The notes under the pieces are model-generated. The model worked only from the letters and a program-made list of their open reading frames with translations, was not told the DNA's origin and did no database searches. Source: an uncultured Acidobacteriota bacterium (GTDB lineage Bacteria; Acidobacteriota; Vicinamibacteria; Vicinamibacterales; CAVVIG01). From it: 64,000 nucleotides of DNA. Made by a program: the position numbers and the translations under genes. The stretch is from assembly GCA_963749565.1 (NCBI GenBank), contig CAVVNL010000004.1:142628-206627 (forward strand). Reading direction: 5' to 3'. Shown here in pieces: positions 20,384 through 64,000 of the stretch (position 1 is the stretch's first letter; the number at the start of each line of letters is the position of its first letter).

Positions 20384-22086
<1,703 letters not shown>

Positions 22087-22245
22087 ACGAACTATGACTA
22101 TATCGTGAATTTGGCAACCGGGTCATTGGATAATCCGAGTTGGTCAGGTGTATCGTGCTGGTCTCGGTCGCCAGGAAATTGGTCCGTTTTGCGTGTTCGC
22201 ACATTGCCGGTTTTTCGTTATCTGTAAGGTAGTGAGGCAAGTTCA

Positions 22246-43269: not shown

Positions 43270-44655
43270 TTATTTGGGCGATGCGGGCGCCTGAATCGGG
43301 GTCTCGATCTGCTTGTGGCAGTAATCGCAGTCGGCGCTGATCTTCGATCCGTCCTTGGCCTCGTGCGAATCGTCGTGGCAGCGGAAGCAGCCGTTCGACG
43401 TGACGTGGCCCGTGTTGTTCGGATAGCTGCCCCAGGTCACGCTCATGTCCGGAAACACGTTCCGGCCATACAGTTGCTGCACCGCTTCGACGGCCTTCGT
43501 CACCGCCTGCTGGTCGATGGCGCCGGTCTGGCTTTTATAGAAATTCCGCAATCCTTCTTCGATTGCGCTCATGCCCGCTTCCTGGCTGGGGTACGTCGCC
43601 TTCACGAGGCGGAGGCTCTCGCGTCTTGCAAAGGGCAGTTCGTGGCTCACCATCGCGGCGGCGATGGCTTGATCGACGGCCCGCTCTGGTGTCGGCGAGA
43701 TGGGATGCCCGACCGTGTTGTGGCAGTCGACGCAGTCCATCGTTAGTCGATCGGCCGCGCGGATCGCCTCTTCCTTTGCGTCAGCCGCGAGGTACTCTTT
43801 GACCTGGCCGTTCGCGTCGGTCACTCGCACGTACGGGATCGTCTGCCGCTCCGCATCGGTCGCCACGTACTCGACGCGAACGGCAGGATCCGCATGCCAG
43901 TGAATCGCCCGCGCCGATGACGTCGTGACGCTCATGTGCATCTGCAGCACCGTCATGGTCCCGGTGTTGGCTTCGTCGTCGGCATAGTCGCGGATGACGC
44001 GGACGCGATCGCCGATCACGCGTCCGGGCGGGTGGCAGCCCTTGCACGTTTCCGCCTGGGCGCCGGGGGACATCTTGGCGCCGGGCGGAATCGGCCTCGG
44101 ATACGTATTGGTGGCGACCATCGCCAGCTGTCGTACGCCGGAAAGCTTCGCCTGCACCAAGGCCTTCGCCCCTTCTCCAATGTGACAGTCGACACAGGCG
44201 ACGCCGGAATGCGCCGCGCCCTGCCAGGCCTGGAACTGAGGGCGCATCGGCGTGTGGCACGTCTGTCCGCAGAAGCCTGGCGTTTCCATCGCGTGCAGGC
44301 CGCCGTACCCGGCCAGCAGAATGAGGACGATGTTGACCGCGGTGAGTGCCGCGATGAGGATGGCGGCTCGGCGGACGTTCGCGCGACGAAAATCGACGAC
44401 GGGCCATTCGGAGACCGCCGTTGGATCGCGAAGCAGTCTTCGTCGCTCGAGATGCATGCCCGCCGGGATGAGCAGAAGCCCCAGCACGAACACCGCTGGG
44501 ATGGCGATGAAGATCACCAGACCTGCGTACGGGTTGGTGAACATCCCCGCCAGCATGGCGATCACCATGGTGATGAACACCACGGCCGACGCCGTGGTGA
44601 CGACCGCCCCGACGATCGCGAGCGGGTGGCGCGCGAGCGCGCTGATCCTCATCAC
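43270..44655 (-). CDS. inner-membrane multiheme c-type cytochrome, NapC/NirT-like with three N-terminal TM helices (CymA/ImcH-like quinol dehydrogenase candidate)
   Basis: Three hydrophobic helices in the first ~125 aa. The NapC/NirT-like segment ETPGFCGQTCHTPM has one CX3CH. Five CXXCH motifs follow (CVDCH, CKGCH, CVDCH, CFRCH, CDYCH). Intact 461 aa. Confidence 0.75.
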   Translation of the reverse strand: MMRISALARHPLAIVGAVVTTASAVVFITMVIAMLAGMFTNPYAGLVIFIAIPAVFVLGLLLIPAGMHLERRRLLRDPTAVSEWPVVDFRRANVRRAAILIAALTAVNIVLILLAGYGGLHAMETPGFCGQTCHTPMRPQFQAWQGAAHSGVACVDCHIGEGAKALVQAKLSGVRQLAMVATNTYPRPIPPGAKMSPGAQAETCKGCHPPGRVIGDRVRVIRDYADDEANTGTMTVLQMHMSVTTSSARAIHWHADPAVRVEYVATDAERQTIPYVRVTDANGQVKEYLAADAKEEAIRAADRLTMDCVDCHNTVGHPISPTPERAVDQAIAAAMVSHELPFARRESLRLVKATYPSQEAGMSAIEEGLRNFYKSQTGAIDQQAVTKAVEAVQQLYGRNVFPDMSVTWGSYPNNTGHVTSNGCFRCHDDSHEAKDGSKISADCDYCHKQIETPIQAPASPK

Positions 44656-44664
44656 GAACGCTCG

Positions 44665-45018
44665 CTACTTCTTCAGACTCTGCATGTAGGCGACGAGCCC
44701 GTCGAGATCCGCCGCGGGCAGGCCGCCGTACTTCGCCGGCATGAGCGGCTTTTTCGTCGACTTGGCCTTCGCGGCGGCCTCGAGCGGGGTCACGATCCAG
44801 GCGCGGATGTCGGCGGCCGACAGCTTCGCGCCGACGCCGTCGAGCGGATTCGTCTTGCTACCAGCACCCGCGATGGAGTGGCAGATCGAACATTTCTGCG
44901 CGGCGTACACCTCCTGCCCCTTCTTCACCTGCGCGGCGTCCTGGGCATTCGCGATGCCGGCGGAAAAGACGAGAGCGAAGACAACGAGCCATCCCCTGGT
45001 CACGAGCGTCCTGTGCAT
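44665..45018 (-). CDS. periplasmic monoheme class I c-type cytochrome
   Basis: Signal MHRTLVTRGWLVVFALVFSAGIANAQ, a single CSICH, and a distal Met region KKPLMPAKY. 117 aa. Confidence 0.85.
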   Translation of the reverse strand: MHRTLVTRGWLVVFALVFSAGIANAQDAAQVKKGQEVYAAQKCSICHSIAGAGSKTNPLDGVGAKLSAADIRAWIVTPLEAAAKAKSTKKPLMPAKYGGLPAADLDGLVAYMQSLKK

Positions 45019-45060
45019 ACAGATCCTCCATGTGCCGAACCGGCGACGTGCCGGCCACTA

Positions 45061-47263
45061 CTACCAACGATACAGAATGCCGAACACCGCCGAGTGGGCG
45101 GTGTAGGGCCGATACACGTAGCCCATGACCAGCGAGCTCGGCTGCACGATGCCGTTGACCACGCTCGGGTCGAACGCGAAGTCGTAGATGCTCAGCGGCT
45201 CGTACAGGTACGAGAACGACGCGGCGAGGCGGTCGGAGAGCCGGTACCGCCCGTCGATGTGCAGCTGCTGCAGCTTGTTGAACACGTCGGGCAGCTGATT
45301 GGGCGGCGGGATCGGGCTGCCCGCCGGGATCGGCGTAGAGGTAGCTCCCCTCGGCGTAGCTGAAGTCGTAGGCGACGCGGATCTCAGTGTTGGCGCCGAT
45401 GCGTGGCGGGCTGGCGTAGATCGAGAAGTAATTCACCGTCTCGGTCGAATCGGCGGTCCAGTCGCGCAGCGGATCGTTGAACTGGGCCGTGGACGAATCC
45501 CCCTCGTGCGAGCGCTGCAGCCCGGCGTAGCGCTCGTAGTTGTAGCTCCCGCCCGCGCCAAAGCCGTTCGGCCGCTGGAAATCCGCCGCGAGCGAGAACG
45601 TACGGCCGGTGGAATCCTGCAGGCCGTAGAAGCTGTTGCTGAAGTCGTCCTTGAGGACGCCGGTGGCCACGCTGAACGTCCAGGCGTCGGACGGCACGAT
45701 ATCGGCCTGGGCCGTGAAGCGGTTCCTCGTCCGATCGGCGACGTCGTAGTGGCGCATCTTGGGTTGCTCGCCAATCGCCGTCAGCCGCGTTTCGTCGAGA
45801 TCTGAACCGGTGCGATCGCCGACCTCGTATTGCGTCCGGAAGGTGAGCCACGAGGTTCCGACGGCATCGGCCGACACGCGGAACACGTTCTCGCCGCTCG
45901 ACTCGAAGATCCGCGCATCGTAGCCGTTCCCGTTGTGCGAGTAGCCGACCGTGAGCGCGAACGGCATCAGTTTCGTCCACGTGGCGTCGCCGTCGAAGGT
46001 CGTCCGGCTGTGCGCGTAGAGGTCCGGACCGCCCGTTGGCGTCGTCGACGCCGAGGAGTCGTAGCTGACCATGTCCGTGATCGACGTCGCGGGCATGAGG
46101 TTGTCGTAGGTGTAGTTGCGCACGCGCGCGCTGAACCGCCAGTCGGTCGACGGGCGCGAGTTGAGGCTCAGGTTGGTCGAGAAGACGTGCGCTTCCCCCT
46201 CGGTGGTCGCGCGGGGCAGCGCGAACTGCGGCAGCGCCGCGTTGATCGTGAAGGGCTCCAGCGGCTCGTCGTTGCTCCACAGTCCATAGGAGAAGGAGCC
46301 CGTCACCTGCGTTCTGCGCGCCAGCTTGGTGTAGCCGCCGAAGCTGATCGTCTGGGCCGAGTTCGACGGCCAGAGGGACATGCGTCCGCGCCCCGGATTC
46401 TCGACCCCATCGTTGAGGTCGAGCGGGCTGTCCCAGACCAGCGTCGGCGCGAGGTTGTCGAACCACGATCCGCTGTAGGCGACACGCAGCATGTTGCGCG
46501 CGTTCGTCCACTCGGTGCCGATGGTGAAGTCGTTCGCGCGCGAATCGTAGGGGAGCGCCACCTCGACGTCGTTGCTGAAGCCGAAGCTGGCCCCCCAGGG
46601 CAGCTCGCCGCTGTGCTTCTGCGTGGTGAAGCTGGCCGTTGACGTCGAGGTTCGGCTTCGGCGTCGCGACCATGTCGAAACGGCCGATGTCGCGCCGCTC
46701 GCGCAGCTCGAACTGCGGCGCCAGCGGGACGTAGGCGTTGAGATTGGCCTGGCCGTTCTGGATCGCGCGCTGCGTCGCGTCGTCGAGCACCAGCGTGCCG
46801 CCGGTGCCCGTATACGGCGTCATCGTATCGACGCTGTAGAACTGCGGAATCTGCTGCCAGCTGCCGCTGAGCGACAGCTTGCCGATCCGGCCGTAAGTCC
46901 CCATGAACTCCTGGTCGCGGTAGCCGACGTTCTCGGCGCGCGCGTGGAAATCCCACGTACCGTCCGGCTTGGCGAACGAGTAGCGGAAGTTCGAGAACAG
47001 CAGCCCGTCGCGCTGGTCCTGGTAGCGCTGGTAGCGCGCCGGGTCGCCGTCCACGCTCGTGAAGCGGCCCCCGATGAGGAATTCGCGCGAGGTCGGCTCG
47101 AAGAGACTGCGCGACGCGACGCATCGGCCGCCGCGGGCGCGGCCGGCTGCGCCGGGGTCTGAGCCGATGGCTGCGCCGGCGGTTGGGCGGCTCCCTGTGC
47201 GAGTGCGGCACCGGGCGCGGCGAGGCCGAGCAGGGCGATCGTCGTGATGGCGAATCGGCGCAT
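45061..47263 (-). CDS. MtrB/PioB-family outer-membrane beta-barrel (decaheme-associated porin), three frame breaks
   Basis: Signal MRRFAITTIALLGLAAPGAALAQ and the family-typical DGDPARYQRYQDQRDGLLFSNFRYS. A long barrel with alternating aromatic strands ends in ...AVFGILYRW. The path is ORF 46820..47263, then 45384..47054, then 44858..46561, then 45061..45285 (breaks near 47105, 46590, 45300). Confidence 0.75.
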
Positions 47264-47276
47264 ACAGAGGCTCCGC

Positions 47277-48240
47277 TTACCGCATGTAGAACTGGCCCGA
47301 CGGGTGGTTCGAGCCGTGGACCTGCGAGTGGCAGTTCACGCACGATCTGCCGAACATCCGGTTGCTCTTGTTGGTGGTGATCTGGTCCTTGTCGTAGAGC
47401 GTCGCCGGGTGCCTGCTCGCGATGTGGCAGCGCTGGCAGAGCATCGGCATGCGGACGGCCAGCATGCGATCGTTCGACGACCCGTGCGGGTCGTGGCAGG
47501 TCGCGCAGTTCTCGCGCACCGGCGCGTGCTCGAAGAGCATCGGTCCGCGCATCTCGGTGTGACAGCTCGTGCAGAGCTCAGCGACGGAGCTGCCCGTCTT
47601 CAGGTTCTTGACGTTGGTGATCGAGCCGTGCGGGTTGTGGCACGAGCTGCAGGACATCTTGCCTTCGCGCACCGGCATGTGCGCGACGGCGCGTTCGGTC
47701 TTGGTCACCTGCAGCCGATGGCAGGTGGCGCACACCTGCGTTTCGGTCGTCTTCACCAGCTGCGCTCTGTGCCGACTTGCGGCGCTGTGGACGCTGTGGC
47801 ACGTCGCGCAGGACAGATTGCGCCGCGTCGTGCGCGCTGCCTTCCCACCCCGCGTGGGCGCCGCGGTTGTGACAGGTGAGACAGGTCTCGCTCACCTCCG
47901 CGGGCTTCATCTGCGCGAACTTCTTGATGTTCCCCTTGGCGTCGTCGTCAACGTGCGCCTGCCCGGGGCCGTGGCAGCTCTCGCACCCGTTGGCCGCCGC
48001 CGGCGACCGCGGATTCTTCGCCTGCGCGTGTTTCGAGCCCGTGAGGGTGGCCTCCTGATCGGTGTGGCAGAGGACGCAGGTATCGCTCCCGACATAGGCG
48101 ACCGGGGCGACCGGCGGAGTCGTCGCTTGTGCGGGAGCCGGCGGTGCTGGAGCGGCTCGAGTCGAGGAAGGAGGCGCAGAGATCAAACCGACAACGACCG
48201 TCGCCCAGAGCCACACGACCACCAAGACAAACCGTGTCAT
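47277..48240 (-). CDS. periplasmic decaheme c-type cytochrome, MtrA/DmsE/MtoA/PioA family (one frame break)
   Basis: Ten CXXCH motifs: CVLCH, CESCH, CLTCH (ORF 47578..48240); then CATCH, CATCH, CSSCH, CTSCH, CATCH, CQRCH, CVNCH in the frame of ORF 47277..47756 extended upstream (RNLSCATCH by hand translation). Family-typical end ...CHSQVHGSNHPSGQFYMR. The +1 break is near 47800. Confidence 0.85.
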
Positions 48241-48344
48241 GGCTACCTCAATCGATGACGCCCAACGCCGTCCAAGTCAGGCACGCACGATGCCTAGCAA
48301 ATGACGCGCCGCACGGCGGGCTCTCAATCAAGCGGCAGCCACTG

Positions 48345-48480
48345 CTCGCGCGCGTCACACTCGCGTCACTATAACGTGATCGAAATTGTGATCACTTAAA
48401 TGTGATCGCAAATGTGATCTCAAGGTCACGGTATGTGGTGAGCGATCACGGCGTGTGGCTAGCGTCACGGCGGGTGCGGT
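48345..48480. promoter_or_regulatory. array of short direct repeats (iteron-like) in the divergent intergenic region
   Basis: CGTCAC x2 (48351-48370). (C/T)GTGATC at 48375, 48387, 48401 and 48413 (spacing 12/14/12 nt), including the palindrome GTGATCAC. Then (G/A/C)TCACGG(N3-5)GTG(T/C)GG at 48424, 48444 and 48463 (spacing ~20 nt). The region is locally AT-richer than its flanks. Confidence 0.5.
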
Positions 48481-48598
48481 GCGCCAGCATGGTTCGCATC
48501 GCCGTGGCCCCACAGCGTACGCGCCTGCGTTCCGCGACCTAGCCAGACCCCGCGAGAAGGATCACCGTTTGCACCGGGCGCCTTCTTCCCGAAAAGGC

Positions 48599-48627
48599 TT
48601 GACACGTAGTGGACGCGAGCGCATAAC
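48599..48627 (+). promoter_or_regulatory. candidate sigma70-type promoter for the formate dehydrogenase operon
   Basis: TTGACA (48599-48604), a 17-nt spacer, then CATAAC (48622-48627). GGAGGA lies 5 nt before the ATG at 48702. Confidence 0.4.
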
Positions 48628-48701
48628 GTAGCGGCAGTCGGAGCCGGGTCTCACAACGGCGAGGAGAGAAACCGAAGACCGCAGTCGCACGGAGGAAACC
48701 C

Positions 48702-51700
48702 ATGGATGAATCCGCGGATGCTCCGACCCGGAACCCCTCCGAGAGCCCGTTGGATGGGAGTGGCACACCGACGTCGACAATCAGCCGCAGAGACCTGTTC
48801 AGGCTGACCTTCGGCGGTGGAGCAGGACTCGCGCTCGGCGGGCTCCTCGACGTTCCCGCGATGCGGGCCGCGACGAGGGACTTGAAGCTCTCGGACGTCA
48901 GCGAGTTCACCACCTCGTGCAACTTCTGCTCGTGCGGGTGCGGCATGATCGCCGCCGTCCGCGACGGCAAGCTCCTGACGATGGAGGGCGACTACGACCA
49001 CATCGTGAACCGCGGGGCGCTGTGCGTCAAAGGCATTTCCATGTTCGCGACGCACGCCTCCCCGAAGCGGCTCACGACGCCCCGCTACCGGGCGCCGGGC
49101 AGCGACCACTGGGAGGACATCTCCTGGGACGACGCGATCACGCGGGTCGCGCAGAAGATCCGGAAGACGCGCGACGAGACCTGGATCGCCACCGAGAAGG
49201 TGGATGCGCCTGAACTCGTCGTGGATCTCGCTGCGGGTGATCGGATCGAGAGCGCCCCACGGTTCGTCCCTCAGGAGGACGGCAACGCAGAGGTGCCGGT
49301 CAATCGCACCGACGCGATCGGCTTCATGGGCGGCGCGCAGAACACGAACGAGGAGTGCTACCTCTTCCAGAAGGCGGCCCGGCTGCTCGGCCTGGCTTAC
49401 GTCGAGCACCAGGCCCGGCTTTGACATAGCCCCACGGTCCCCGGTCTGGGGGCCACGTTCGGGCGGGGAGCGATGACCAACCACTGGGTCGACCTGCAGA
49501 ACTGCAAGACGATCCTGGTGGAAGGCAGCAACGTCGCCGAAAACCACCCCATGGCCTTCAAGTGGATCCGGAAGGCCCAGGAGAACGGGGCGAAGATCAT
49601 CCACGTCGATCCGCGATACACCCGGACCTCGGCGGGGGCGGACGTGTACGCGCGCATCCGGCCCGGCACCGACGCGGCGTTCCAGAACGCGATGATCAAC
49701 CACATCATCGTCAACAAGCTGTACGACGAGGATTACGTCGTCACCCACACGAACGCCCTCTACCTGGGCGACGAGGCGTTCGACTTCAAGGATGGGGTCT
49801 TCAGCGGCTACGACGAGGAGCACCACACCTACGACACCAAGACCTGGGGATACCAGCTCGACGCGAAGGGCAAGCCGCGCGATCGCCAGGAGCCTCGATG
49901 ACCCGCACTGCGTGTTCTCGCGCCTGAAGACCTTCGTCTCGCGGTACACGCTGGAGATGGGCGAGCGGATCACCGGCATTCCGGCCGATCAGATCCGGCA
50001 GATCGCGGAGACGATGGCGAAGAACCGGCCGGGATCCATCCTCTACGCGCTCGGGATGACCCAGCACACGACCGGTGTGCAGGGGATCCGGTCGTTCACG
50101 ATCCTGCAGCTCCTGCTCGGCAACATCGGCAAGCCCGGAGGCGGCGTCAACGCGCTGCGCGGCGAGCCGAACGTGCAGGGCGCGTGCGACATGGCGGTGC
50201 TCTACAACTACATGCCGGGCTACCTCAACTCGCCGACCAATGCCGAGCCGACGATCTACCACTACGTGCGCAAGAACGGGATCGCCGACAGCCGGTACCT
50301 CGTCAACACGCTCAAGGCGTTCTTCGGAGAGGCGGCCACCGCCGAGAACGACTATGCCTATGCCTGGCTGCCCAAGCGCGACGCGGCCAAGGACTACGGC
50401 ACCCTGCCGATGTTCGAGGATGCCCTCGCCGGGAAGCTGAAGCTCCTCTGGATCGTCGGCCAGAATCCCGCGGTCACCCTGCCCAACCTCAAGCTGACGT
50501 TCGACGCGATGGCGAAGCTCGAGACGCTCGTGGTCCAGGAGATCTGGGAGACCGAGACCGCGGCGTTCTGGCGCCGGCCCGGCGTCGACCCGAAGTCCAT
50601 CGCCACCGAAGTGATCCTGCTGCCCGCGGCGTTCTTCATGGAGAAGAACGGCACCATCAGCAACTCGGGCGGCATGGTGCAATGGCGCCACGCCGCCGTG
50701 AAGCCGCCGGGGCAGGCCAAGCCCGACGGCGAGATCGTGGACCTCGTCTTCCGCGCGGTGCGCGATCTGGTCAAGGACTCGAAGGAGCCGAGGGACGAGA
50801 TCATCCGCAAGGCCTTCTGGACCTACACCACGGCCGAGGACGTCCTGCGCGAGATCAACGGCTACGCCCTGCGCGACAACCCGGAGACCGGCCTCAAGGC
50901 GGGCGATCTCATCCGCAAGGTCGGCGATCTTCGGGCCGACGGTTCCACGTCGTCCGGCGCCTGGATCTACGCGGGCGTCTTCGCCAACGGCGAGAACCTC
51001 TCGAAGCGCCGCGACTCGACAACGGATCCGGGAGGCCTCGGCCTCTATCCGGGCTTCGGGTGGACCTGGCCCAACAACATGCGCATCCTCTACAACCGCG
51101 CGTCGTGCGACCGGAACGGCAAGCCCTATCCGGGCTCGAAACCCATCGTCTGGTGGGACGAGCAGGCGAAGCGCTGGACGGGATACGACGTGCCGGACGT
51201 CCCCGTCCTGACCGACGGACCCGACACGCCGAACGGCCAGCGGGCCTTCCACCTGGGCGCGGAGGGCGTCGGGCGCCTCTTCGCGGCCGTCTACACGGAC
51301 CCCGACGCGAGGTTCACCGAATATTGGCGCGACGTGGCCTACGTGCCGAAGGACGGCCCGCTGCCGGAGATGTACGAGCCCGTCGAGAGCCCGGTGGAAA
51401 ACATCCTTCACCCGGGCGTGAAGAGCAACCCGATGCTCAAGTATCCGCGCGTCGCGTCGCATCAGCCCATCGGCACCGCCGACAAGTTCCCCTACGTGCT
51501 GATGACGTCGACGGTCGCCGAACACTGGTGCTGCGGCTCGACGACGCGGAACATCCCCTGGCTCAACGAGCTCGTCCCCGAACCGATGGTGGAGCTGCCG
51601 GTCGCCCTCGCCCAGAAGCTCGAGATCACATCGGGGGACTGGGTCCGGGTCTCGTCGGCGCGCGGTGAGCTCGAGGTCAAGGCCCTCGTCACGCCCCGCA

Positions 51701-51921
51701 TGAAGGCGCTGAAAATCGGCGACCAGGAGGTCACCGTCGTCTGGATGCCGTACAACTGGGGCTTCCAGGGGCTGTCGACGGGTCCGAGCGTCAACCACAT
51801 CACGATCGACGCCACGGATCCTGGAGCGGGAACCCAGGAGACCAAGGCGTGCCTCGTCAACGTCGTCAAGACCGGCCGCCCGGCGGCGCGAAGATCCGGA
51901 TCACCGAGGGGACGCACATGA
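48702..51921 (+). CDS. fdhA: formate dehydrogenase catalytic (molybdopterin) subunit, Tat-exported, selenocysteine at UGA 49422-49424; one frame break
   Basis: Tat motif SRRDLFRL and Fe-S motif CNFCSCGCG. The active-site block EHQARL-U-HSPTVPGLGATFGRGAMTNHW has the TGA in frame between ORFs 48702..49424 and 49473..49901. A +1 break near 49886 leads into ORF 49792..51921 (GMTQHTTG, ALRGEPNVQG, ...ETKACLVNVVK). Confidence 0.9.
49422..49470 (+). promoter_or_regulatory. UGA(Sec) codon plus bacterial SECIS hairpin
   Basis: UGA CAU AGC CCC ACG GUC CCC GGU CUG GGG GCC. The stem GGUCCCC/GGGGGCC has the apical loop GGUCU, and GGUCUG starts 18 nt after the UGA. As I recall it, this is the same register as the E. 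coli fdhF SECIS. Confidence 0.75.
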
Positions 51922-54122
51922 CGCTAGCCGCGGACGCGGGCCCGATCAAGACAACGCTGATCGACATCGCCAACTGCATCGGCTGCCGGGCGTGCCAGGT
52001 AGCCTGCAAGCAGTGGAACGAGCGCGAGGGCGAGCAGACCGAGCTCGAGGCCGACATGGGCTTCCAGAACCCGGCGACGCTCAGCGCGAAGACGTACACG
52101 CTCATCGCGTTCCACGAGATGGAGAACCCGGCGAAGCCGGGAGGGCTGGATTCCGCCTACGTGATGCAGCGGTGCCTCCACTGCCTGGAGCCGGCCTGCG
52201 TCTCCGCCTGCCCGACGACGGCGCTCCAGCGGCAGGCCGACGGCCCGGTGTCGTATGAGGTCGACGAGTGCATCGGCTGCCGCTACTGCATGCTGGCGTG
52301 TCCCTGGGACGTGCCGACCGCGGACTGGAACACGCGCGCCCCGAAGATCTCGAAGTGCACGCACTGCGCCGACCGCGCCCCTCAGCCGGCGCCGATCGCG
52401 TTCAACGGGCAGCCGCTGTCCGACGATGCGGCCAGGCAGTTCGCCAACACCATGGCGATTCCAGCCTGCGTCAAGGCGTGCCCCGCCGACGCCCTGCGCT
52501 ACGGAACCCGGGACGAGATGCTGGCGCTCGCGCACAAGCGCATCGCCGACCGGCCCGACAAGTACGTCGACCACGTCTACGGAGAGAAGGAGCTGGGCGG
52601 GACGACCGTGCTGTACCTGTCGAGAGTGCCGTTCGAGAAACTCGGCTTCCCGACGTACGGGGAGAAGCCGTTTCCGGCCTTCACCACGGCGGCGCTCGGC
52701 GCCGTGCCCCCCGCCGTGATGGCCGTGGGCGCCCTGCTCGGCGCCGCGTACGCCTTCTTCCGGAAGCGGGCTCAGGCGGTGGCAGACGCATCGGCTGCGT
52801 CGGCGCATTCCGGACACCACGGCCCCGTTAAACACGTCGAATTCGAGCCGCTCCGGCACGCGCTGCTGACCCCCTTCAACTGGGTCCTCCTCATGCTCAT
52901 GGCGTTCGGCGGCGTCACGTTCGTCGCGCGCTTCGCCCTCGGACTCGGCGGCAGTACGAACCTCTCCGACACCTACCCGTGGGGCCTGTGGATCCTCTTC
53001 GACCTGGTGTGGATCGCGGTGGCCGCCGGCGCGTTCGCGATGGCCGGGGTGATCTATGTCTTCCAGCGAAAGGACCTCTACGGGCTGGGCCGCACCGCCG
53101 TCCTGATGGGCCTGCTGAGCTACTCCTTCGTGATGGTCACACTCATCGCCGACCTCGGCCTGCCCTGGAACTCCTACCAGCTCGCCCTGCAGGCTCCGGA
53201 GCACTCGGCCATGTTCGAGGTCTCGTGGTGCGTCGGCCTCTACGTCACGGTCCTCCTGCTCGAATTCCTGCCGGTGCCTTTCGGGCGTTGGGGATTCCAT
53301 CGGGCCGCGGCTGAATTACGGCGATGGAACGGCGCCTACGTGGCGGGGGCGGTGACGCTGTTCGTCTACCTGATGTCGCGCAGCCTCCTCTACGCGCTCG
53401 GGGCGGCCGTGATCTTCGGCGCCCTCGCCTGGATTTTCCGCGCGCGGGACGAGGGGGCCGAGCCGATCATGCTCGCGATCGCCGCCGTCACGCTGTCGAC
53501 CATGCACCAGAGCTCGCTCGGTTCCCTCTACCTGCTGATGCCGAACATGCTCGCCCCGCAGTGGTGGTCTCCCGTGATGCCCGTCTCCTTCTTCCTGTCG
53601 TCGATCGCGGCCGGCACCGCGCTCGTCATCCTCATCGACATGTGGATCGCGAAGGGATGGCGCCGCCCGCTCGAGATTACGCGGCTCGCCTCGGTCGGAC
53701 AGATCGCGTTCTGGGCGCTCCTTGTCTACCTCGTATTTCGCCTCGGAGACATGGCGATCCGCAACCAGCTCTCCGGAGCCTTCTCCGGCAGGCTCGGCAT
53801 GGCCTTCGCGGCCGAGATCCTCCTCGGCGGCGTGCTTCCGCTCGTCCTGCTGGCCCGCAGGTCGCTTCGCCAGCGTCCCGACGTGCTCTTCGTCGCGGCC
53901 CTCCTCGCGGTCGTCGGCGTGGCGTACAACCGCATGAACGTCGTAATCTTCGCGATGACTTTCCGGGGCCGCATGCCCTGGGGCGCACCGGAAACCTATT
54001 TCCCGTCGATCGTCGAGTGGGGCGTGTCGATCGGCCTGATCGCCGCGACGATCTTCCTCTTCGGCCTGGCGGCCCGTCTCATGCCGGTGCTCTCCCGGGC
54101 GCAGCCCAGCGAGGCACATTGA
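51918..54122 (+). CDS. fusion of a 4x[4Fe-4S] ferredoxin subunit (FdnH/HybA-like) with a HybB/NrfD-family integral membrane quinone-interacting subunit
   Basis: The ATG at 51918 overlaps the fdhA stop (ATGA). Cys clusters CIGCRACQVACKQWN, CLHCLEPACVSACP, CIGCRYCMLACPWDVP, CTHC...CVKACP. A TM helix follows, then ~8 more TM segments with HybB-like blocks (YPWGLWILFDLVWIAVAAGAFA, LSTMHQSSLGSLYLLM). Intact 735 aa from 51918. Confidence 0.8.
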   Translation: MTLAADAGPIKTTLIDIANCIGCRACQVACKQWNEREGEQTELEADMGFQNPATLSAKTYTLIAFHEMENPAKPGGLDSAYVMQRCLHCLEPACVSACPTTALQRQADGPVSYEVDECIGCRYCMLACPWDVPTADWNTRAPKISKCTHCADRAPQPAPIAFNGQPLSDDAARQFANTMAIPACVKACPADALRYGTRDEMLALAHKRIADRPDKYVDHVYGEKELGGTTVLYLSRVPFEKLGFPTYGEKPFPAFTTAALGAVPPAVMAVGALLGAAYAFFRKRAQAVADASAASAHSGHHGPVKHVEFEPLRHALLTPFNWVLLMLMAFGGVTFVARFALGLGGSTNLSDTYPWGLWILFDLVWIAVAAGAFAMAGVIYVFQRKDLYGLGRTAVLMGLLSYSFVMVTLIADLGLPWNSYQLALQAPEHSAMFEVSWCVGLYVTVLLLEFLPVPFGRWGFHRAAAELRRWNGAYVAGAVTLFVYLMSRSLLYALGAAVIFGALAWIFRARDEGAEPIMLAIAAVTLSTMHQSSLGSLYLLMPNMLAPQWWSPVMPVSFFLSSIAAGTALVILIDMWIAKGWRRPLEITRLASVGQIAFWALLVYLVFRLGDMAIRNQLSGAFSGRLGMAFAAEILLGGVLPLVLLARRSLRQRPDVLFVAALLAVVGVAYNRMNVVIFAMTFRGRMPWGAPETYFPSIVEWGVSIGLIAATIFLFGLAARLMPVLSRAQPSEAH

Positions 54123-54126
54123 GCCG

Positions 54127-54960
54127 ATGACTCCGGATCCGTGGTTGGATGCGCATTCGTACCTCCGGCCCCTGGCCGACCTCTCCGCCCAGGTCGATCG
54201 CGCGGCGGCCGGGATCGACGTCTTCGACGCCCGCATTCCCGACTGGGAGGATTACGGCGCGGACTTTCGCGCCGGCGTGCCGCTGCTGTCGAGCGCCGAC
54301 GCGGGCGTCGATCTCGAACCGGGTGGGCGAATGGCCGGAGCGCTTCTCGAAAGACTGGCCTCAGGCACGTCGTCGGGACAGTTCGCGACGGAGACGCGCG
54401 CGCTCGACACGGCACTGCGGCGGGTTCCACAGGTCTCGCGCCGCATCGCGGACTTTCTGCTGGGCCCGCTGAGCGATGAAACGTTCGCGCCGCCCTTCCC
54501 CGGGCTGTTGCGGTATCTGGCGTGGACGGCGATGGCGCGGTTCCTCCGTCCCGTGGTGAACGCCTTCGACGGTTGGCGGGACGAGGAGCGGTGGGGTCGC
54601 AGGTATTGCCCGACGTGCGGATCCCTGCCCGCGATGGCCCAGCTGGTCGGGTTCGACCCCGGGCGCAGGCGTCTGCTCTCGTGCGGCTGCTGCGGCACGC
54701 GCTGGCAGTTCAAGCGAACCGGCTGCCCGTTCTGTGAAACCGACTCTCAACGGCTCGCGAGTGTGACCATCGAGGGAGAACGCGGCCTGCGCATCGACCA
54801 CTGCGAGTCCTGTGGCGGCTACCTCAAAACCTACGACGGGGAGGGCAACGAGGCCCTCATGCTATCGGACTGGTCTTCACTCCATCTCGACCTCATCGCT
54901 CACGATCGCGGATTGAAAAGGCTGGCCGCATCGCTTTACGAGTTCGAGCCCGTTCTCTGA
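54127..54960 (+). CDS. fdhE: formate dehydrogenase accessory protein FdhE
   Basis: Four CxxC pairs: CPTCGS, CGCCGTRW, CPFCE, CESCGGYLK. Intact 277 aa. Confidence 0.85.
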   Translation: MTPDPWLDAHSYLRPLADLSAQVDRAAAGIDVFDARIPDWEDYGADFRAGVPLLSSADAGVDLEPGGRMAGALLERLASGTSSGQFATETRALDTALRRVPQVSRRIADFLLGPLSDETFAPPFPGLLRYLAWTAMARFLRPVVNAFDGWRDEERWGRRYCPTCGSLPAMAQLVGFDPGRRRLLSCGCCGTRWQFKRTGCPFCETDSQRLASVTIEGERGLRIDHCESCGGYLKTYDGEGNEALMLSDWSSLHLDLIAHDRGLKRLAASLYEFEPVL

Positions 54961-55693: not shown

Positions 55694-57115
55694 TCAGACC
55701 CGCAGGAATTCGAGGCGGTGATGGGCATCAGGATTTCGTGTGGACGGACCAGCCACGAGCATGGCCACGCCGCCGCGGACGTGATGCTCATGGAGCCACT
55801 GCCGGGCAAAGTCAAGCCAGTTCTCCGGTTCCTGTGCGAGTTGGATCGGATGCACGCCGTAGGAGAACGCCAGGCCCCGACACACCGCCTCGTCGCGGCC
55901 CATGGCGACAATCCACACCGCCGGAGCGAAGCGCGAGATCATCCGCGGCGTCACGCCGGTCCTCGTGGGTACGAACACGGCGGCGCAGTCCACCGTCTCC
56001 AGCGCGTGCTCTACCACGGACGCAAGCGCCTCGGCCGCCGTGGCTGGCCGGCGCTGGCTGAACGTCGCTTTCAAGGCATTCAGGCGGGCGGGGGGGCGGC
56101 GCGCCTCGGTGTACGCGGCGATCTTTGCCAGCATCTCCACTGCCTCCGCCGGATACTTGCCCATCGCCGACTCGCCCGAGAGCATGACGGCGTCGGTGCC
56201 ATCCAGGATGGCGTTCGCCACATCCGTGGACTCAGCCCGTGTGGGCAGGCGGCTGGTGGTCATGGATTCGAGCATCTGCGTCGCGGTGATGACCGGCTTG
56301 CCGGCGAGGCTGGCCTGGGAGATGAGTTGCTTCTGGATCACAGCCATCTGTTCAATCGGCACTTCCACCCCGAGATCGCCGCGTGCCACCATGATCCCGT
56401 CAGCCGCCTTCACAATCTCATCGAAGTGGGCGAGGGCATCGGCACGCTCGATCTTGGCGATGATGAACGGCTGCTTGCCGATGGCGTTCGCCGCCGCGCG
56501 CACGGCTTCAATGTCCGCGGCGGTTTCCACGAACGACTGGCTCACAGCGTCCACGCCATTCTTGAGCGCAAATTCCAGGCAGGCGCGGTCGTGGTCGGTA
56601 AACGCACTGATGCCGAGCTGAATGCCGGGTAGATTGAGGCCTTTCTTGGAACGGAGTTCACCGCCGACCGCGACCGTGCACTGGACGTCCTCACCCACCA
56701 CGCGCTGGACGACGAGTTGCACCAGGCCGTCGTTGAGAAAGAGCCGGTCACCCGGCTTCACGACACCGGGCAGCCGATCGAAGCTCATCGAGACCCGGCG
56801 CTCGTTGCCGACCACCTCCTCGCTCGTCAGCGTGAAGCTCTCGCCGGGATGCAACTGAATCGGCTCCGGATCGATCGTGCCAATGCGCATCTTTGGACCC
56901 GGCAGGTCGGCCATGATGGCGACGCGCCGGCCGGTGGCCCGTTCCGCCGCGCGGATGCGCGTGATGCGCTCGGCGTGGCCGGCGAAGTCCCCGTGCGAGA
57001 AATTGAGCCGCGCGATGCTCAGCCCCGCGCGAATGAGGCGTTCGAGCATCTCCGGCGATTCCGAGGCCGGTCCGATGGTGCCGACGATCTTGGTCTTGTG
57101 GTCAGGCAGTGGCAT
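55694..57115 (-). CDS. pyk: pyruvate kinase
   Basis: KTKIVGTIGPAS, ARLNFSHG, MVARGDLGVE, TQMLESM. Intact 473 aa. Confidence 0.95.
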   Translation of the reverse strand: MPLPDHKTKIVGTIGPASESPEMLERLIRAGLSIARLNFSHGDFAGHAERITRIRAAERATGRRVAIMADLPGPKMRIGTIDPEPIQLHPGESFTLTSEEVVGNERRVSMSFDRLPGVVKPGDRLFLNDGLVQLVVQRVVGEDVQCTVAVGGELRSKKGLNLPGIQLGISAFTDHDRACLEFALKNGVDAVSQSFVETAADIEAVRAAANAIGKQPFIIAKIERADALAHFDEIVKAADGIMVARGDLGVEVPIEQMAVIQKQLISQASLAGKPVITATQMLESMTTSRLPTRAESTDVANAILDGTDAVMLSGESAMGKYPAEAVEMLAKIAAYTEARRPPARLNALKATFSQRRPATAAEALASVVEHALETVDCAAVFVPTRTGVTPRMISRFAPAVWIVAMGRDEAVCRGLAFSYGVHPIQLAQEPENWLDFARQWLHEHHVRGGVAMLVAGPSTRNPDAHHRLEFLRV

Positions 57116-57138
57116 AGGGCGAATAGATTACGTTTGGA

Positions 57139-59579
<2,441 letters not shown>

Positions 59580-59601
59580 TCATACCTCGCGGGCGCCCAT
59601 T

Positions 59602-60891
59602 CTATTGCATGTTCGACGGCTGTCCGGTGGACGCCAGCACGCTGGTCCAGAGGACACCTTCCGGATCGATCTTCTTGCGCTCGGATACGGCAAGCGCGAT
59701 GGGTACGTGGGTGAACTGATGGTTCCAGAAACTGACGACCATGTTCGTCCGGCCCGTCATACCCGCATGCACGGCACAGTGCCCGAAGAGAAGACAGAAC
59801 GCCGAATCATGGGCGGTGGCCGGCACGCTCCGGATGGCATAGCTGGGGTCGATGTATTTGAGGCTGATCGGCATGCCGATCCGCTTGAAGTGATCGGCGA
59901 TCGCGTCGCGCAGGAACACGCCGACGTCTCCGTACTTGACGTTTCCAGACGCATCGCGCTGTCCACTCTGCGCCACGAGGTTCTGGCCGGCTCCTTCGGC
60001 CGCCACGATGACGGCATGGCTCCGCCGCTCGAGCCGCTGCTTCAGTGCGGACAGCAACTTCTCCAGCGTGAACGGGACTTCAGGAACGAGACAGAAGTCC
60101 ACCTGGCCATCAACGAGCGCTGAATAAGCCGCGATGAACCCGGAGTCGCGGCCCATGAGCTTCACGAGACCGACCCCATTGCCGGCGCTTTCGGCCTCGA
60201 CGCGGGCCGCAGATGTCGCGCGCCGCGCCTCGGTCACCGCCGTTTCGAATCCGAAGGTCTTCTGAACGAAAGATACATCGTTGTCAATCGTCTTCGGGAT
60301 GCCGATCACGCTGATGGCGAGTCCGCGGCTCGCCGCTTCGTCGCCGATCTTCTGAGCGCCGCGGAGCGTTCCATCGCCGCCGATCGCGAAGAGGATGCCG
60401 ACCCGCAGGTCGTGCAGCGTCTGGACCATCTCCGCCGGATCCTGGGGCCCGCGAGAGCTGCCGAGCACGGTTCCACCGACGGCATGGATCCGGTTGACAG
60501 TGTCTGGCGTCAGGGTGAGCGGCTCGTGCCCGTACCGACGCACGAGGCCCTCGTAGCCGAAACGAAATCCGTACACGGAGCGTACGCCGTAGTGGTTGTG
60601 CAGGCTCAGCACGATCGACCGGATCACGTCGTTCAATCCCGGGCAGAGGCCGCCGCACGTCACGATCCCGCACGAAAGCGTCGCCGGGTCGAAGAACAGC
60701 TTTTCTCGCGGTCCCGCGACTTCCATCGAGGGAAGGTCGGTGCGCGCATCCAGCCACGTCTTCGCCTGCGTCAACGTCGACGGATAGAGCGCGCGGTCGT
60801 CGTGCTGGCTGAAGCGAAGGCCGGTCATCGGCGACTGAAAGCGGCATTCGCCCAGCCGCGCGATCGTGAAATCGAGATCCTGCCCAGACAT
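59602..60891 (-). CDS. pfkA: ATP-dependent 6-phosphofructokinase (long, plant-like/group with GGDG)
   Basis: The ATG at 60891 gives MSGQDLDF. TCGGLCPGLNDVIRS, IGGDGTLRGA (GGDG argues for ATP over PPi), PKTIDNDV, MGRDSGFIA. This is the C-terminal 430 aa of the merged ORF 59602..61932. Confidence 0.85.
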   Translation of the reverse strand: MSGQDLDFTIARLGECRFQSPMTGLRFSQHDDRALYPSTLTQAKTWLDARTDLPSMEVAGPREKLFFDPATLSCGIVTCGGLCPGLNDVIRSIVLSLHNHYGVRSVYGFRFGYEGLVRRYGHEPLTLTPDTVNRIHAVGGTVLGSSRGPQDPAEMVQTLHDLRVGILFAIGGDGTLRGAQKIGDEAASRGLAISVIGIPKTIDNDVSFVQKTFGFETAVTEARRATSAARVEAESAGNGVGLVKLMGRDSGFIAAYSALVDGQVDFCLVPEVPFTLEKLLSALKQRLERRSHAVIVAAEGAGQNLVAQSGQRDASGNVKYGDVGVFLRDAIADHFKRIGMPISLKYIDPSYAIRSVPATAHDSAFCLLFGHCAVHAGMTGRTNMVVSFWNHQFTHVPIALAVSERKKIDPEGVLWTSVLASTGQPSNMQ

Positions 60892-60908
60892 GTGCGCCTT
60901 CCTGACGA

Positions 60909-61932
60909 CTACTTCATCATGGTCGTGCCGGCCGCCCTGAGTTCCGTCACGGCCTGTTTGACGCGTTCCGTCATCGCCTTCTCGGCGAGGCTCAAGTACG
61001 AGCGCGGATCGTAGGCCTTCTTGTTCCCGACTTCCCCGTCCACTCGGAGCACGCCGTCGTAGTTCTTGAAGAAGTGGCCGGCGATCGCGCGGGAGAAGGC
61101 ATATTGCATGTCCGTATCGACGTTCATCTTCACGACGCCGTAATCCAGCGCTTCGTGGATGTCGCGGATCTCGGACCCCGATCCGCCATGGAAGACCAGG
61201 TAGAACCGTGACGCCTCGCCGAACGCCTGGACGACCGACGTCCTGGCAGTCCTTGAGGATGGAAGGTTTCAGGGCGACGTGGCCCGGTTTGTACACGCCG
61301 TGCACGTTGCCGAACGTCGCGGCCAGCAGATATCGGGCGCCTGCCGCATTCATTCGTCGCGCGACTTCCAGCGTGTCCTCCGGTGTCGTGTAGAGTTTCG
61401 CGGCGGCGCTCGCCGCGACCCCATCCTCTTCGCCGCCAACGACGCCGGCCTCGATCTCGAGGATGAGGTCGCTTTTTTTGAATCGTTCGAGCAGCTTCAC
61501 TGCGATGTCGAGGTTCTCTTTCAGCGGCAACGCGCTGCCATCGAACATGTGGCCGGTGAACAGATTCGGCTTGCCGGCCGCCCGTCGCCGCTCCGTTTCC
61601 TCCACGAGTGGGATGACGAACGTGTTCACCTTGTCTGCCTGGCAGTGATCGGTGTGGAGCGCGACGTAAATCGGGTACCTGTCGGCGACACGGTGGACGT
61701 ACTCCGCGATCGACAAGGCACCGAGGGCCATGTCCTGCAGGCCGGCTCCAGATACGAAGGCGCCGCCGCCAGTCGACACCTGAACGATGCCGTCACTTCT
61801 ACTGTCGGCGAGTCCTTTCAGAACGGCGTTCGCCGTGCTCGGCGATGTCACGTTGACGGCGGGGTAGGCGAATCTTCCCCGCCGCGCCCGATCGAGCATC
61901 TCGCAGTAGGTCGCGTAGTCGGCTACCGGCAT
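60909..61932 (-). CDS. fba: class II fructose-bisphosphate aldolase (one frame break)
   Basis: YAYPAVNVTS, HTDHC, LEIEAGVVGGEEDGV, FGNVHGVYK, then after a +1 break near 61215 LVFHGGSGS (hand translation) and ORF 60909..61133 (MNVDTDMQYAF...). Confidence 0.85.
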
Positions 61933-61951
61933 GGGGTCTCCTTCAGTCGGT

Positions 61952-62443
61952 TCACTTGGCCTCCATGAACCTGCGCAACTCTTCTTCCTTGTCCCGGGTG
62001 AGCGACGTCTGCAGTACTCGACCCTTGCCCGAAAATCCCTTCAAGCCTTCGAGGACCTTGTCGGGCGTGGACTTGCGCACGAGCACGAACAGCGCGGAGG
62101 TGCCTGGCGTCAGGGTCGCACCCAGATCCTTCATGAATTGGTCGTTGATCCCGATATCGGCCAGCTTGCCCGAGAGAGCTCCCGACCCGGCACCCACCGC
62201 CGCGCCTAGAAGAGGATTCAGGAACAACATCCCGATCAGCGTCCCCCAGAATGCTCCACTCGCCGCACCGGCGGCGGTGAGATTCAGGGACTGGTGCAGT
62301 TGCGCCTTGCCCTGAGCGTCGCGCGTGACGACGACGGCGTCCTCCATCTCGATCAGATATTGGGTCTGCATTTTGGCCAATGCCGCGCGCATCTCGACCG
62401 CATCACGTTCGTTGTCGAACCCTATGACAATGAGGTTGCTCAT
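61952..62443 (-). CDS. DUF1269-family membrane protein
   Basis: MSNLIVIGFDNERDAVEMRAALAKMQ..., a Gly-rich TM core (GAASGAFWGTLIGMLFLNPLLGAAVGAGSGAL), and GINDQFMKDLG. Confidence 0.75.
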   Translation of the reverse strand: MSNLIVIGFDNERDAVEMRAALAKMQTQYLIEMEDAVVVTRDAQGKAQLHQSLNLTAAGAASGAFWGTLIGMLFLNPLLGAAVGAGSGALSGKLADIGINDQFMKDLGATLTPGTSALFVLVRKSTPDKVLEGLKGFSGKGRVLQTSLTRDKEEELRRFMEAK

Positions 62444-62464
62444 GAGTATTCCTTTAGGTTGCAG

Positions 62465-64000
62465 TTACGCCTGGGGCGCGGATGCCGGTGTGACATTCCA
62501 CACGTGCGCGCAGTAATCACGGATCGACCGGTCGGAGGAGAACTTGCCCATGCGAGCGGCGTTGAGGATGGATCGGCGCGTCCAGGCCTGCGGATCGCGC
62601 CACAGCGCCCCGATCTGCTCCTGGGCCTCCAGGTAGGCCTGATAGTCGGCGAGCACCAGGAACGGATCGTGGCCAAGCAAGTTGTCCACGAGCGGACGGA
62701 AAAGGTTCGCGTCGCCGCCCGCCAGCGCGCCGCTCGCGATGAAGTCGAGCACGTCCCGCAAGGCGGCGTTCTGTGCGTAGTAATCGTACGGCCGGTAGCC
62801 GCCGGCCTTCAATGCATCTACCTCCTCTGCCGTGAGACCAAACAGGAAAAAGTGTTCCGCGCCGACCTCCTCGCGGATTTCGACATTCGCCCCGTCGAGG
62901 GTGCCGATGGTCAGCGCGCCGTTCATCGCAAACTTCATGTTGCCCGTGCCCGAGGCTTCCTTGCCGGCGGTGGAAATCTGCTCGCTCAAGTCGGCGGCGG
63001 GGAAGATGTGCTGGGCGTTCTTCACGTTGTAGTCAGGGAAGAAGACGACCTTGAGCCGGTCTCTTATGGCGGGGTCGTGGTTGACCACGGTGGCCACCGA
63101 GTTGATCAGCTTGATGATGAGCTTGGCCATGACGTAGCCGGGCGCGGCCTTGGCGCCGAAGATGAACGTGCGCGGCGGCACGTCGGCCTGCGGATCGCGT
63201 TTCAGCCGCAGGTAAAGCGTGAGGATATGCAGCACATTCAGGTGCTGCCGCTTGTATTCGTGCAGGCGCTTGATCTGGATGTCGAAGAGCGAGTCCGGAC
63301 TGACCGTGATGCCGGTGCGCTCTGCGATGAGCACCGCCAGGGCGCGCTTGGCGGTGAGTTTCACGGCGCGCCACTGGTTCTGGAAGGCCGCGTCGTCGGC
63401 CAGCGGCTCCAGCTTGCGGAGCTGATGCAGGTCGCGCAACCAGCCGTCGCCAATGCGCTCGGTGATGAGTCGGGCGAGCGGCGGATTGCTGACGGCGATG
63501 AAGCGGCGCGGTGTCACGCCGTTGGTGACGTTGAGGAACTTCTCCGGCCACAACTCAGCGAAGTCGTGCATGACCGTCTTGACGAGCAGGTCCGAATGAA
63601 GTTGCGCCACGCCGTTGACATGATGACTGCCCACGGTGGCCAGATGGGCCATGCGCACAGAGCGTTCGCCGCCTTCGTCGATGATCGACATCCGGGCCAG
63701 TCGGGCGTCATCCCCTGGGAATGTCGCCCGCACGTGGTCGAGGAAGCGCTGGTTGATTTCGTAGATGATCTCGAGGTGGCGCGGCAGCAGGCGCCCGAAC
63801 AACCCGACAGGCCATTTCTCCAAGGCCTCGGGCAGCAGGGTGTGGTTGGTATAGGCGAAGGTGTTGTGCGTGATGCGCCAGGCGCCGGCCCAGTCCATCG
63901 CATGCTCGTCCACGAGCAGGCGCATCAATTCGGCCACGGCGATGGCCGGGTGCGTGTCGTTGAGCTGCACGGCCCATTTTTCGTGGAAGGTGTCGAGCGA
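62465..64000 (-). CDS. glgP: glycogen/maltodextrin phosphorylase, N-terminal part outside the window
   Basis: [35 protein letters not shown], the PLP-lysine region [28 protein letters not shown], and the stop at 62465. The ORF is open to the window edge. Confidence 0.9.

Follow-up and report, generated by a model that had tools for sequence, protein, structure and literature searches.

In Shewanella, the single-transmembrane (TM), tetraheme CymA acts as quinol oxidase for the MtrCAB conduit, and formate is well known to drive Mtr-dependent reduction via a quinone-linked formate dehydrogenase (Fdh). In Geobacter, the corresponding position is held by ImcH, a menaquinol oxidase for acceptors above about -0.1 V. 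A third arrangement is the Fe(II)-oxidation cluster mtoA-mtoB-mtoD-cymA of Sideroxydans lithotrophicus ES-1, which encodes a decaheme cytochrome, a porin, a monoheme cytochrome c and a NapC/NirT-type cytochrome (PMC10654088). For the enzymes that feed electrons into such chains, the closest described systems are FdnGHI (1KQF) and FdhE of Escherichia coli, the HybA/HybB pair of E. coli hydrogenase-2, and HmcBC and QrcCD of Desulfovibrio. The present analysis concerns a 64,000-nucleotide stretch of DNA (hereafter the window; G+C ~65%) from an uncultured soil bacterium of the Vicinamibacterales (Acidobacteriota), in which an operon for a porin-cytochrome conduit on the minus strand and an operon for a selenocysteine (Sec)-containing Fdh on the plus strand diverge from one intergenic region. 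Because related bacteria show this pairing again, in several gene orders, the two operons probably form a single respiratory route from formate to an external electron acceptor.

The gene layout was derived from the listing of open reading frames (ORFs), three-frame translation and a plot of codon-position GC, and families were called by comparing Pfam and NCBIfam profile scores with the cut-offs of the models. The conduit operon begins with mtrA (48240 to 47277, minus strand), which, once reconstructed across a break in the reading frame that is considered below, encodes a periplasmic cytochrome of ~321 aa. Its size, its ten CxxCH motifs and a TIGR03508 score of 248.3 bits (cut-off 192.2) place it in the DmsE/MtrA family, and among PDB sequences its best match, over the full length, is 6r2q chain A (E=7.5e-65), in our reading the MtrA subunit from the MtrCAB complex of Shewanella baltica. 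The 6R2Q entry is named as S. baltica MtrAB in PMC10654088. The adjoining porin gene (47263 to 45061, minus strand), which starts 13 nt past the mtrA stop, encodes an outer-membrane beta-barrel of the MtrB/PioB family with a reconstructed length of ~731 aa and a C-terminus of ...LYRW followed by two stop codons; its PF11854 score is far above the cut-off (289 bits against 23), and its TIGR03509 score is barely so (241.7 against 240.05). The likeness to Shewanella thus extends to both the decaheme cytochrome and the family of the barrel. The two remaining genes of the operon encode its only other cytochromes, and the gaps between the four genes are 13, 42 and 9 nt. The smaller of the two (45018 to 44665, minus strand) specifies a periplasmic monoheme class-I cytochrome c of 117 aa with a signal peptide and a CSICH motif (PF00034 and PF13442). 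Compared with PDB sequences, this cytochrome matched no chain named MtoD, and its best matches were generic class-I domains with E>=1.8e-4.

The last gene of the conduit operon (44655 to 43270, minus strand) encodes a 461-aa inner-membrane cytochrome of which Pfam and NCBIfam detected the NrfH/NapC core alone (TIGR03153, E=1.7e-16; also PF03264); no match was obtained among PDB sequences, and no ImcH entry of NCBIfam was matched. Homologues of ImcH have been defined by three N-terminal TM helices, a CX3CH motif near the TM domain and five to nine CX2CH motifs (Zhong & Shi, 2018; PMC6295460), and the window protein has all of these features, with TM helices at residues ~10-35, 38-70 and 94-122, an atypical CX3CH at residue 129 after the third helix, and CX2CH motifs at 154, 204, 308, 423 and 443. 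The spacing is collinear with the published positions in GSU3259, the ImcH of Geobacter sulfurreducens, where the motifs stand at 132, 156, 205, 311, 428, 448 and 486 and the helices at 13-35, 45-67 and 100-122 (PMC6295460), although the seventh, C-terminal motif of GSU3259 is missing here. ImcH homologues with six motifs and lengths of 450-468 aa have been recorded from metagenome-assembled genomes (MAGs) of Acidobacteria, from Anaeromyxobacter and from Geothrix (PMC6295460, Table S3). By its architecture, the 3-TM hexaheme protein is therefore an ImcH-type cytochrome and a candidate menaquinol oxidase. Several differences from Geobacter accompany this likeness: the outer-membrane partner is an MtrAB-type decaheme cytochrome with an MtrB/PioB barrel rather than Pcc/Omc, a monoheme cytochrome c takes the place of the triheme PpcA as periplasmic carrier, and an fdh operon is physically linked. 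Further, the 2018 survey found ImcH in Fe(III) reducers only and mtrAB never adjoining imcH (PMC6295460), whereas here the two adjoin in most of the loci that were compared. With respect to Shewanella, the quinol oxidase is likewise of a different type from CymA, and the Fdh and Mtr genes are linked.

The divergent operon opens with fdhA (48702 to 51921, plus strand), the molybdopterin-containing catalytic subunit of a periplasmic Fdh exported by the twin-arginine translocation (Tat) pathway. A TIGR01553 score of 1024 bits (cut-off 814), the Tat motif SRRDLF, an N-terminal 4Fe-4S domain (PF04879) and a Sec-His motif assign it to the alpha subunits of formate dehydrogenase-N (FdnG/FdoG). Sec is encoded by an in-frame TGA at 49422-49424 in the context EHQARL-U-HSPTV, and TGA is kept at this position in all 17 related fdhA genes that cover the site. 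Twelve nucleotides past the UGA lies a hairpin (49436 to 49454, plus strand; GGUCCCC-GGUCU-GGGGGCC) resembling a Sec insertion sequence (SECIS), the core of which, GTCCCCGGTCTGGGGGC, is unchanged in all 17 related loci, synonymous sites included, while the flanking codons vary. As read from this alignment, such a pattern of conservation is the signature of a SECIS element; it is this conservation of the core, and not the folding energy, that supports the reading, as the energy is no better than that of shuffled sequences (z=0.21) and unremarkable for this G+C content. A search for the cognate tRNA-Sec found no tRNA genes within the window.

The second gene of the fdh operon (51918 to 54122, plus strand), whose ATG overlaps the fdhA stop (ATGA), encodes a 734-aa polypeptide in which FdhB, a TM-anchored four-cluster ferredoxin like HybA and FdnH, is fused to a polytopic membrane module of the HybB/NrfD type. 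Its N-terminal half contains Fer4 domains, resembles HybA and HmcB in NCBIfam and, for the iron-sulphur part, matches the FdnH structure 1kqf_B (E=8.7e-38); its C-terminal half resembles HybB and HmcC, and residues 369-703 score 46.3 bits with PF03916 (NrfD; cut-off 25.8), which together with the polytopic domain following a four-cluster ferredoxin marks it as an NrfD/HybB-family membrane subunit. The scores with HybA (198 bits), HybB (PRK10881, 230), HmcB (237) and HmcC (208) all remain under the equivalog cut-offs (450 for PRK10881). The fusion is kept in all full-length relatives examined and, since it is a single ORF in 12 relatives, including short-read MAGs, it is not an assembly artefact. 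Compared with HybAB, HmcBC and QrcCD, the two parts are thus joined in one polypeptide, and this polypeptide serves a formate dehydrogenase. The operon ends with a gene for a 277-aa FdhE-like maturation or accessory protein with four CxxC pairs (54127 to 54960, plus strand), co-conserved with fdhA and fdhB in related loci. On profile scores this FdhE is divergent but recognisable, being above the cut-off for PF24859 (FdhE_central; 31.5 against 27) and below it for PF24860 (22.2 against 27) and for TIGR01562 (65 against 187.65). The operon shares with E. coli FdnGHI a Tat-exported Sec alpha subunit, a four-cluster beta subunit with a TM anchor and an FdhE-like gene, but it holds no gene for the di-heme cytochrome b gamma subunit (FdnI), and in its place a heme-less HybB/NrfD-type domain is fused to beta. 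An earlier note on this DNA had named the genes of both operons, and all of them are present at the positions it gave; its Sec-containing periplasmic Fdh and the HybB/NrfD-type subunit fused to FdhB are borne out by the motifs and scores given above, and its proposal of the 3-TM multiheme protein as a plausible quinol oxidase is strengthened by the ImcH architecture, at the level of sequence. Its list of conduit genes was correct as far as it went, but it overlooked the monoheme cytochrome c.

To place the pairing in a wider context, conduit loci were collected on the basis of the porin, whose homologues are proteins from MAGs and metagenomes, the few with organism names belonging to Vicinamibacterales. 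A scan of one genome per species yielded 80 loci, all but a few of them in MAGs of Vicinamibacterales, Vicinamibacteria or Acidobacteriota, to which five were added through exact-protein look-ups, and 84 distinct loci entered the counts. Synteny was scored by tBLASTn with the window proteins, and an fdh operon was counted when FdhA was at least 60% identical and lay no more than 10 kb away. The four-gene core of the conduit is near-universal, with mtrA in 82 of the 84 porin-anchored loci, the cytochrome c gene in 77 and imcH in 70. An fdh operon accompanies the conduit in 20 of the 84 loci (14 of the 60 with ample flanks), in four arrangements. It is divergent and upstream in 14 loci, as in the window; co-directional and directly after imcH in four (L027, L048, L057 and L082), with only ~17 nt between the imcH stop and the fdhA start in L048; convergent and downstream in one (L021); and co-directional and upstream in one (L008), where the order is cytochrome c, fdhA, fdhB-hybB, fdhE and, after 66 nt, mtrA, porin and imcH. 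The gaps in L048 and L008 are those expected of an operon. In L008, as in L131, the cytochrome c gene has been relocated to just upstream of fdhA. The fdh-linked loci are spread over at least eight clades of a neighbour-joining tree of porin DNA. Chance adjacency was considered as an explanation and rejected, because the linkage is frequent and occurs in several arrangements. In one locus otherwise without fdh (L004), a stretch just upstream of mtrA (8225-8809, plus strand) is 39% identical to FdhA residues 674-864, and could be either what remains of an fdh operon since lost or a piece of an unrelated molybdoenzyme.

A tally of neighbours, made by clustering the called genes of all conduit loci and identifying the clusters with Pfam and NCBIfam, returned FdhA as the commonest gene outside the core (22 loci, the window included). 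It was followed by pyruvate:ferredoxin oxidoreductase (PFOR, NifJ-type; TIGR02176, 1764 bits) and a DHOD-like flavoprotein (NF005741, 411 bits) with 20 loci each, an MFS transporter/Pta (19), glycogen phosphorylase (13), pyruvate formate-lyase (PFL)-activating enzyme, phosphoketolase and malic enzyme (10 each), and PFL itself (TIGR01255, 1156 bits) and serine dehydratase (nine each). No terminal oxidase, bc1 complex or nitrate/nitrite reductase recurred among these neighbours. Where fdh is absent, the same slot is often taken by PFOR with the DHOD-like gene, or by PFL. The PFOR and DHOD-like genes lie mostly directly upstream of mtrA and in the same direction, with overlapping stop and start codons in L002, and the loci concerned include L002, L010, L014, L017, L033, L035, L038, L039, L046, L049, L052 and L079 (at ~4-9 kb in locus coordinates); the DHOD-like protein could be the link by which electrons from PFOR enter the quinone pool. 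PFL is found within 10 kb of the conduit in L004, L016, L017, L029, L034, L038, L053, L071 and L072, and the activating enzyme also in L031, where its gene adjoins the fdh operon, which in turn adjoins the conduit. When FDH and PFL are counted together, about one third of the conduit loci carry a formate-related gene. In the window itself, a glycolysis and glycogen cluster on the minus strand (55694-64000), with genes for pyruvate kinase, GAPDH, enolase, PFK and glycogen phosphorylase, lies directly beyond fdhE.

The linkage is also apparent when approached from the other operon. A scan of metagenomes anchored on the FdhB-HybB fusion gave 80 soil contigs, of which 32, those extending 1.5 kb or more upstream of fdhA, were used for counting, along with a stricter set of 13 with both flanks of at least 5 kb. 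A gene for an ImcH-like protein (35-40% identical), an MtrA-like protein (30-49%) or the cytochrome c was present in 18 of the 32 contigs and in eight of the 13; the unlinked contigs had no multiheme ORFs near fdh. The commonest partner is an ImcH-like gene alone, directly divergent from or co-directional with fdhA, as in L100-L102, L127, L129 and L150, where no island genes intervene. In L089, FdhA is 86% identical to that of the window, and its gene, a Sec-fdhA, diverges from genes for a decaheme cytochrome (33% identical), an 833-aa barrel (2957-5458, minus strand) and an ImcH-like protein with the same spacing of CX3CH and five CX2CH motifs; similar layouts exist in L095 and L125. The L089 barrel gave no Pfam match, MtrB_PioB included, and is possibly an unclassified porin partner of the decaheme cytochrome. 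L089 repeats the layout of the window with another kind of barrel.

Taken as a whole, the locus is best explained, with rather more confidence than doubt, as a single anaerobic respiratory route in two halves, joined through the menaquinone pool. On the input side, the Tat-exported Sec enzyme FdhA would oxidise formate in the periplasm, and electrons would pass through the iron-sulphur clusters of FdhB to the fused HybB/NrfD-type domain, where menaquinone would be reduced. On the output side, the ImcH-type cytochrome would re-oxidise menaquinol at the periplasmic face and hand the electrons, either directly or via the monoheme cytochrome c, to MtrA inside the MtrB/PioB barrel. MtrA would then deliver them to an extracellular acceptor, probably one that is soluble or of fairly high potential, such as chelated Fe(III), Mn(IV) or humic quinones. 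The logic proposed here, from menaquinol to ImcH, a periplasmic cytochrome and an outer-membrane conduit, is that of Geobacter. In evolutionary terms, ImcH, cytochrome c and MtrAB would represent a conserved output module of the Vicinamibacterales to which interchangeable anaerobic inputs or formate producers have been attached, namely the Sec-containing Fdh here and PFOR with the DHOD-like protein, or PFL, elsewhere. The earlier note had proposed a possibly self-contained and closed chain, and this does not hold: the path would run through a shared quinone pool, so the chain is not closed, and fdh is one interchangeable input rather than part of a self-contained unit, because the pairing is not fixed and its slot is often filled by PFOR and the DHOD-like gene or by PFL. 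Conserved synteny, which the note had named as its test, speaks in favour of its interpretation, which is supported in part: the pairing is recurrent from both sides but not universal.

The two operons may be co-regulated from the region that separates them. The earlier estimate of ~460 bp and its description as repeat-rich agree with what was found, the mtrA and fdhA starts being separated by 461 bp (48241-48701) with tandem repeats and a palindrome. The repeat array, at ~48349-48483, consists of TGTGATC/TCAC half-sites arranged in tandem units of 26 nt (two copies) and 19-20 nt (three copies), and includes a 42-nt imperfect palindrome built on TGTGATC; the motif occurs at this one spot in the window, and the array may be an operator array. 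It is common only to contig L003, a soil-metagenome contig from JGI with 96% DNA identity to the window, in which it has one unit fewer. Upstream of mtrA in the other loci the array is absent, and the alignment of the intergenic regions has a mean column identity of 39%. A candidate fdhA promoter was recognised by eye (TTGACA at 48599-48604 and CATAAC at 48622-48627, separated by 17 nt), while a scan of the intergenic region with the sigma-70 consensus returned 0 matches; a GGAGGA precedes the fdhA ATG. Among the 14 divergent intergenic regions, no FNR (TTGAT-N4-ATCAA) or CRP (TGTGA-N6-TCACA) box was found except for one CRP-like sequence with a single mismatch in L069. The cluster of GATC sites was considered as a methylation switch and rejected as not significant, because GATC is very frequent (595 sites in the window) and five sites in 80 bp occur three times. 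Genes for HisKA_3-type histidine kinases (14 loci) and GerE/NarL-type response regulators (10 loci) recur near the conduit (clusters c9 and c13; for example L001 6258-8433 and L004 18405-19043) and are candidate regulators of the operon. An Rfam search of the whole window found no riboswitch or other RNA family in the region; elsewhere in the window it located a TPP riboswitch (RF00059) at 21985-22089 on the minus strand (65.7 bits, gathering threshold 54.3).

Several observations weigh against a formate-driven, outward route. Class-I monoheme cytochromes c are often of high potential, which makes a step outward from such a protein to MtrA awkward, and the described isolates of the Vicinamibacterales are, to our knowledge, aerobes. 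No gene for an MtrC/OmcA-type surface decaheme cytochrome is present in the conduit operon (43270-48240), which in this respect differs from Shewanella and is not a complete MtrCAB system. In 64 of the 84 loci, among them the close relatives L001 and L004 (87% and 90% porin identity), no fdh operon is present at 10 kb or less from the conduit. The conduit genes stand in the same order as those of the Fe(II)-oxidising mtoABD-cymA cluster (order as given in PMC10654088). Finally, three of the genes are interrupted in the assembled sequence, and if the frameshifts are genuine, this organism has a module that no longer works. The interruptions are five in number, with a 1-nt indel in mtrA at 47826, indels in the porin gene at 47109-47114, 46638 and 45330, and a 1-nt indel in fdhA at 49882, and taken at face value they would point to a decaying set of pseudogenes. 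That reading is very improbable. Codon-position GC stays above 0.9 in every frame segment across the breaks, and relative to contig L003, which was used as reference for indels, each change of frame corresponds to a small indel; along their whole length, the reconstructed proteins can be aligned with their intact L003 counterparts at 92-96% identity, and the reconstructed porin matches the intact protein P0001 with 96% identity and 100% coverage. Moreover, ORFs are split throughout the window despite an intact coding signal, as in enolase at ~58786/58788, and the indel in fdhA, an additional A giving rise to a GATC, is common to L069 and absent from L021, L012 and L024. L069 belongs to the MFD series, from which many of the related MAGs come and which we take to consist of long-read (nanopore) assemblies. 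Because the coding signal and the homologues are intact, the splits are window-wide and the GATC-creating A recurs in L069, the five indels are most likely systematic assembly errors, as far as sequence comparison can tell.

It is possible, if unlikely, that the operons have no more in common than their regulation or their place in an anaerobic-metabolism island, both being connected to the general quinone pool, with formate electrons going mainly to other acceptors and the conduit serving other donors. The neighbourhood is indeed a mosaic of anaerobic catabolic genes (PFOR, PFL, Pta, glycolysis), 76% of conduits are without a nearby fdh operon and 14 of the 32 informative fdh operons without nearby cytochromes, and the intergenic region is unconserved beyond the closest relative. 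However, fdh and conduit are packed co-directionally, 17-66 nt apart, in several lineages, an ImcH-like gene alone is often the partner of fdh, and the linkage recurs with a non-orthologous barrel. More improbable still is an inward flow, in which the conduit would take up electrons from extracellular Fe(II) or a cathode in the manner of Mto or Pio, with Fdh unrelated or acting as a CO2 reductase. The order shared with mtoA-mtoB-mtoD-cymA (PMC10654088), the lack of MtrC in both and the monoheme class-I cytochrome c in the position of MtoD all fit that direction, but the membrane cytochrome, with its three TM helices and six motifs including CX3CH, is of the ImcH type and not of the CymA type, and ImcH was found only in Fe(III) reducers in the 2018 survey (PMC6295460). 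Nor could the cytochrome c be matched by sequence to any solved MtoD structure. Oxidases, bc1 and Nar are missing from the recurrent neighbours, which are instead enzymes of electron-donating catabolism and argue for a flow opposite to that of Sideroxydans Mto. In addition, by established potentials, reduction of CO2 (about -430 mV) by Fe(II)-derived electrons via quinol would be strongly uphill. Outward flow is thus favoured because of the ImcH identity, the catabolic neighbours and the thermodynamic implausibility of such CO2 reduction. A further scenario, in which Fdh would pass its electrons directly to the cytochromes in a membrane supercomplex comparable to Qrc, Hmc or ACIII, the HybB/NrfD domain being an anchor, a proton path or a quinone side-branch, is one to which we give little credence. 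FdhB-HybB resembles HmcB/HmcC and QrcC/QrcD, which are partners of multiheme cytochromes, the cytochrome c gene stands directly upstream of fdhA in two loci, and no gene is more tightly paired with fdh than the ImcH-like one; yet the closest characterised relatives, Fdh-N and the HybAB of hydrogenase-2, are quinone reductases, and ImcH has the features of a quinol site.

The components of this system and their physiology are known, while their genetic architecture and the host clade are new. Clusters of decaheme and porin genes with ImcH/NapC-like genes are mentioned in a 2026 MAG study, and a literature search for fdh with mtrAB, porin-cytochrome clusters or imcH, and for extracellular electron transfer in Vicinamibacterales, found no description of the linkage of fdh to either mtrAB or imcH, in agreement with what had earlier been supposed. 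The locus is a hybrid in which an inner-membrane cytochrome of the Geobacter type is combined with an outer-membrane conduit of the Shewanella type. Conduits like MtrAB or MtoAB are widespread in MAGs of soil Acidobacteriota, and annotation pipelines usually leave them ambiguous between iron oxidation and iron reduction; the linkage to fdh, the ImcH-type oxidase and the pyruvate, formate and glycogen neighbours provide a testable answer, namely that electrons flow outward and that formate is a donor. If this is true, an abundant soil clade adds to anaerobic formate turnover and to the reduction of iron, manganese and humic substances in transiently anoxic soils. As a tentative but plausible extension, soil Acidobacteriota (Vicinamibacterales and at least one other lineage) may possess a plug-and-socket system, in which ImcH, cytochrome c and the decaheme-barrel pair would form the socket and a Sec-containing Fdh or PFOR with the DHOD-like protein the swappable inputs, sometimes within one operon, so as to support formate- or pyruvate-driven reduction of Fe(III), Mn(IV) or humic substances under anoxia, possibly with a supercomplex of Fdh, ImcH and cytochrome c. 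Should that extension prove true, abundant and supposedly aerobic soil bacteria would act as formate- and pyruvate-driven extracellular reducers during anoxia.

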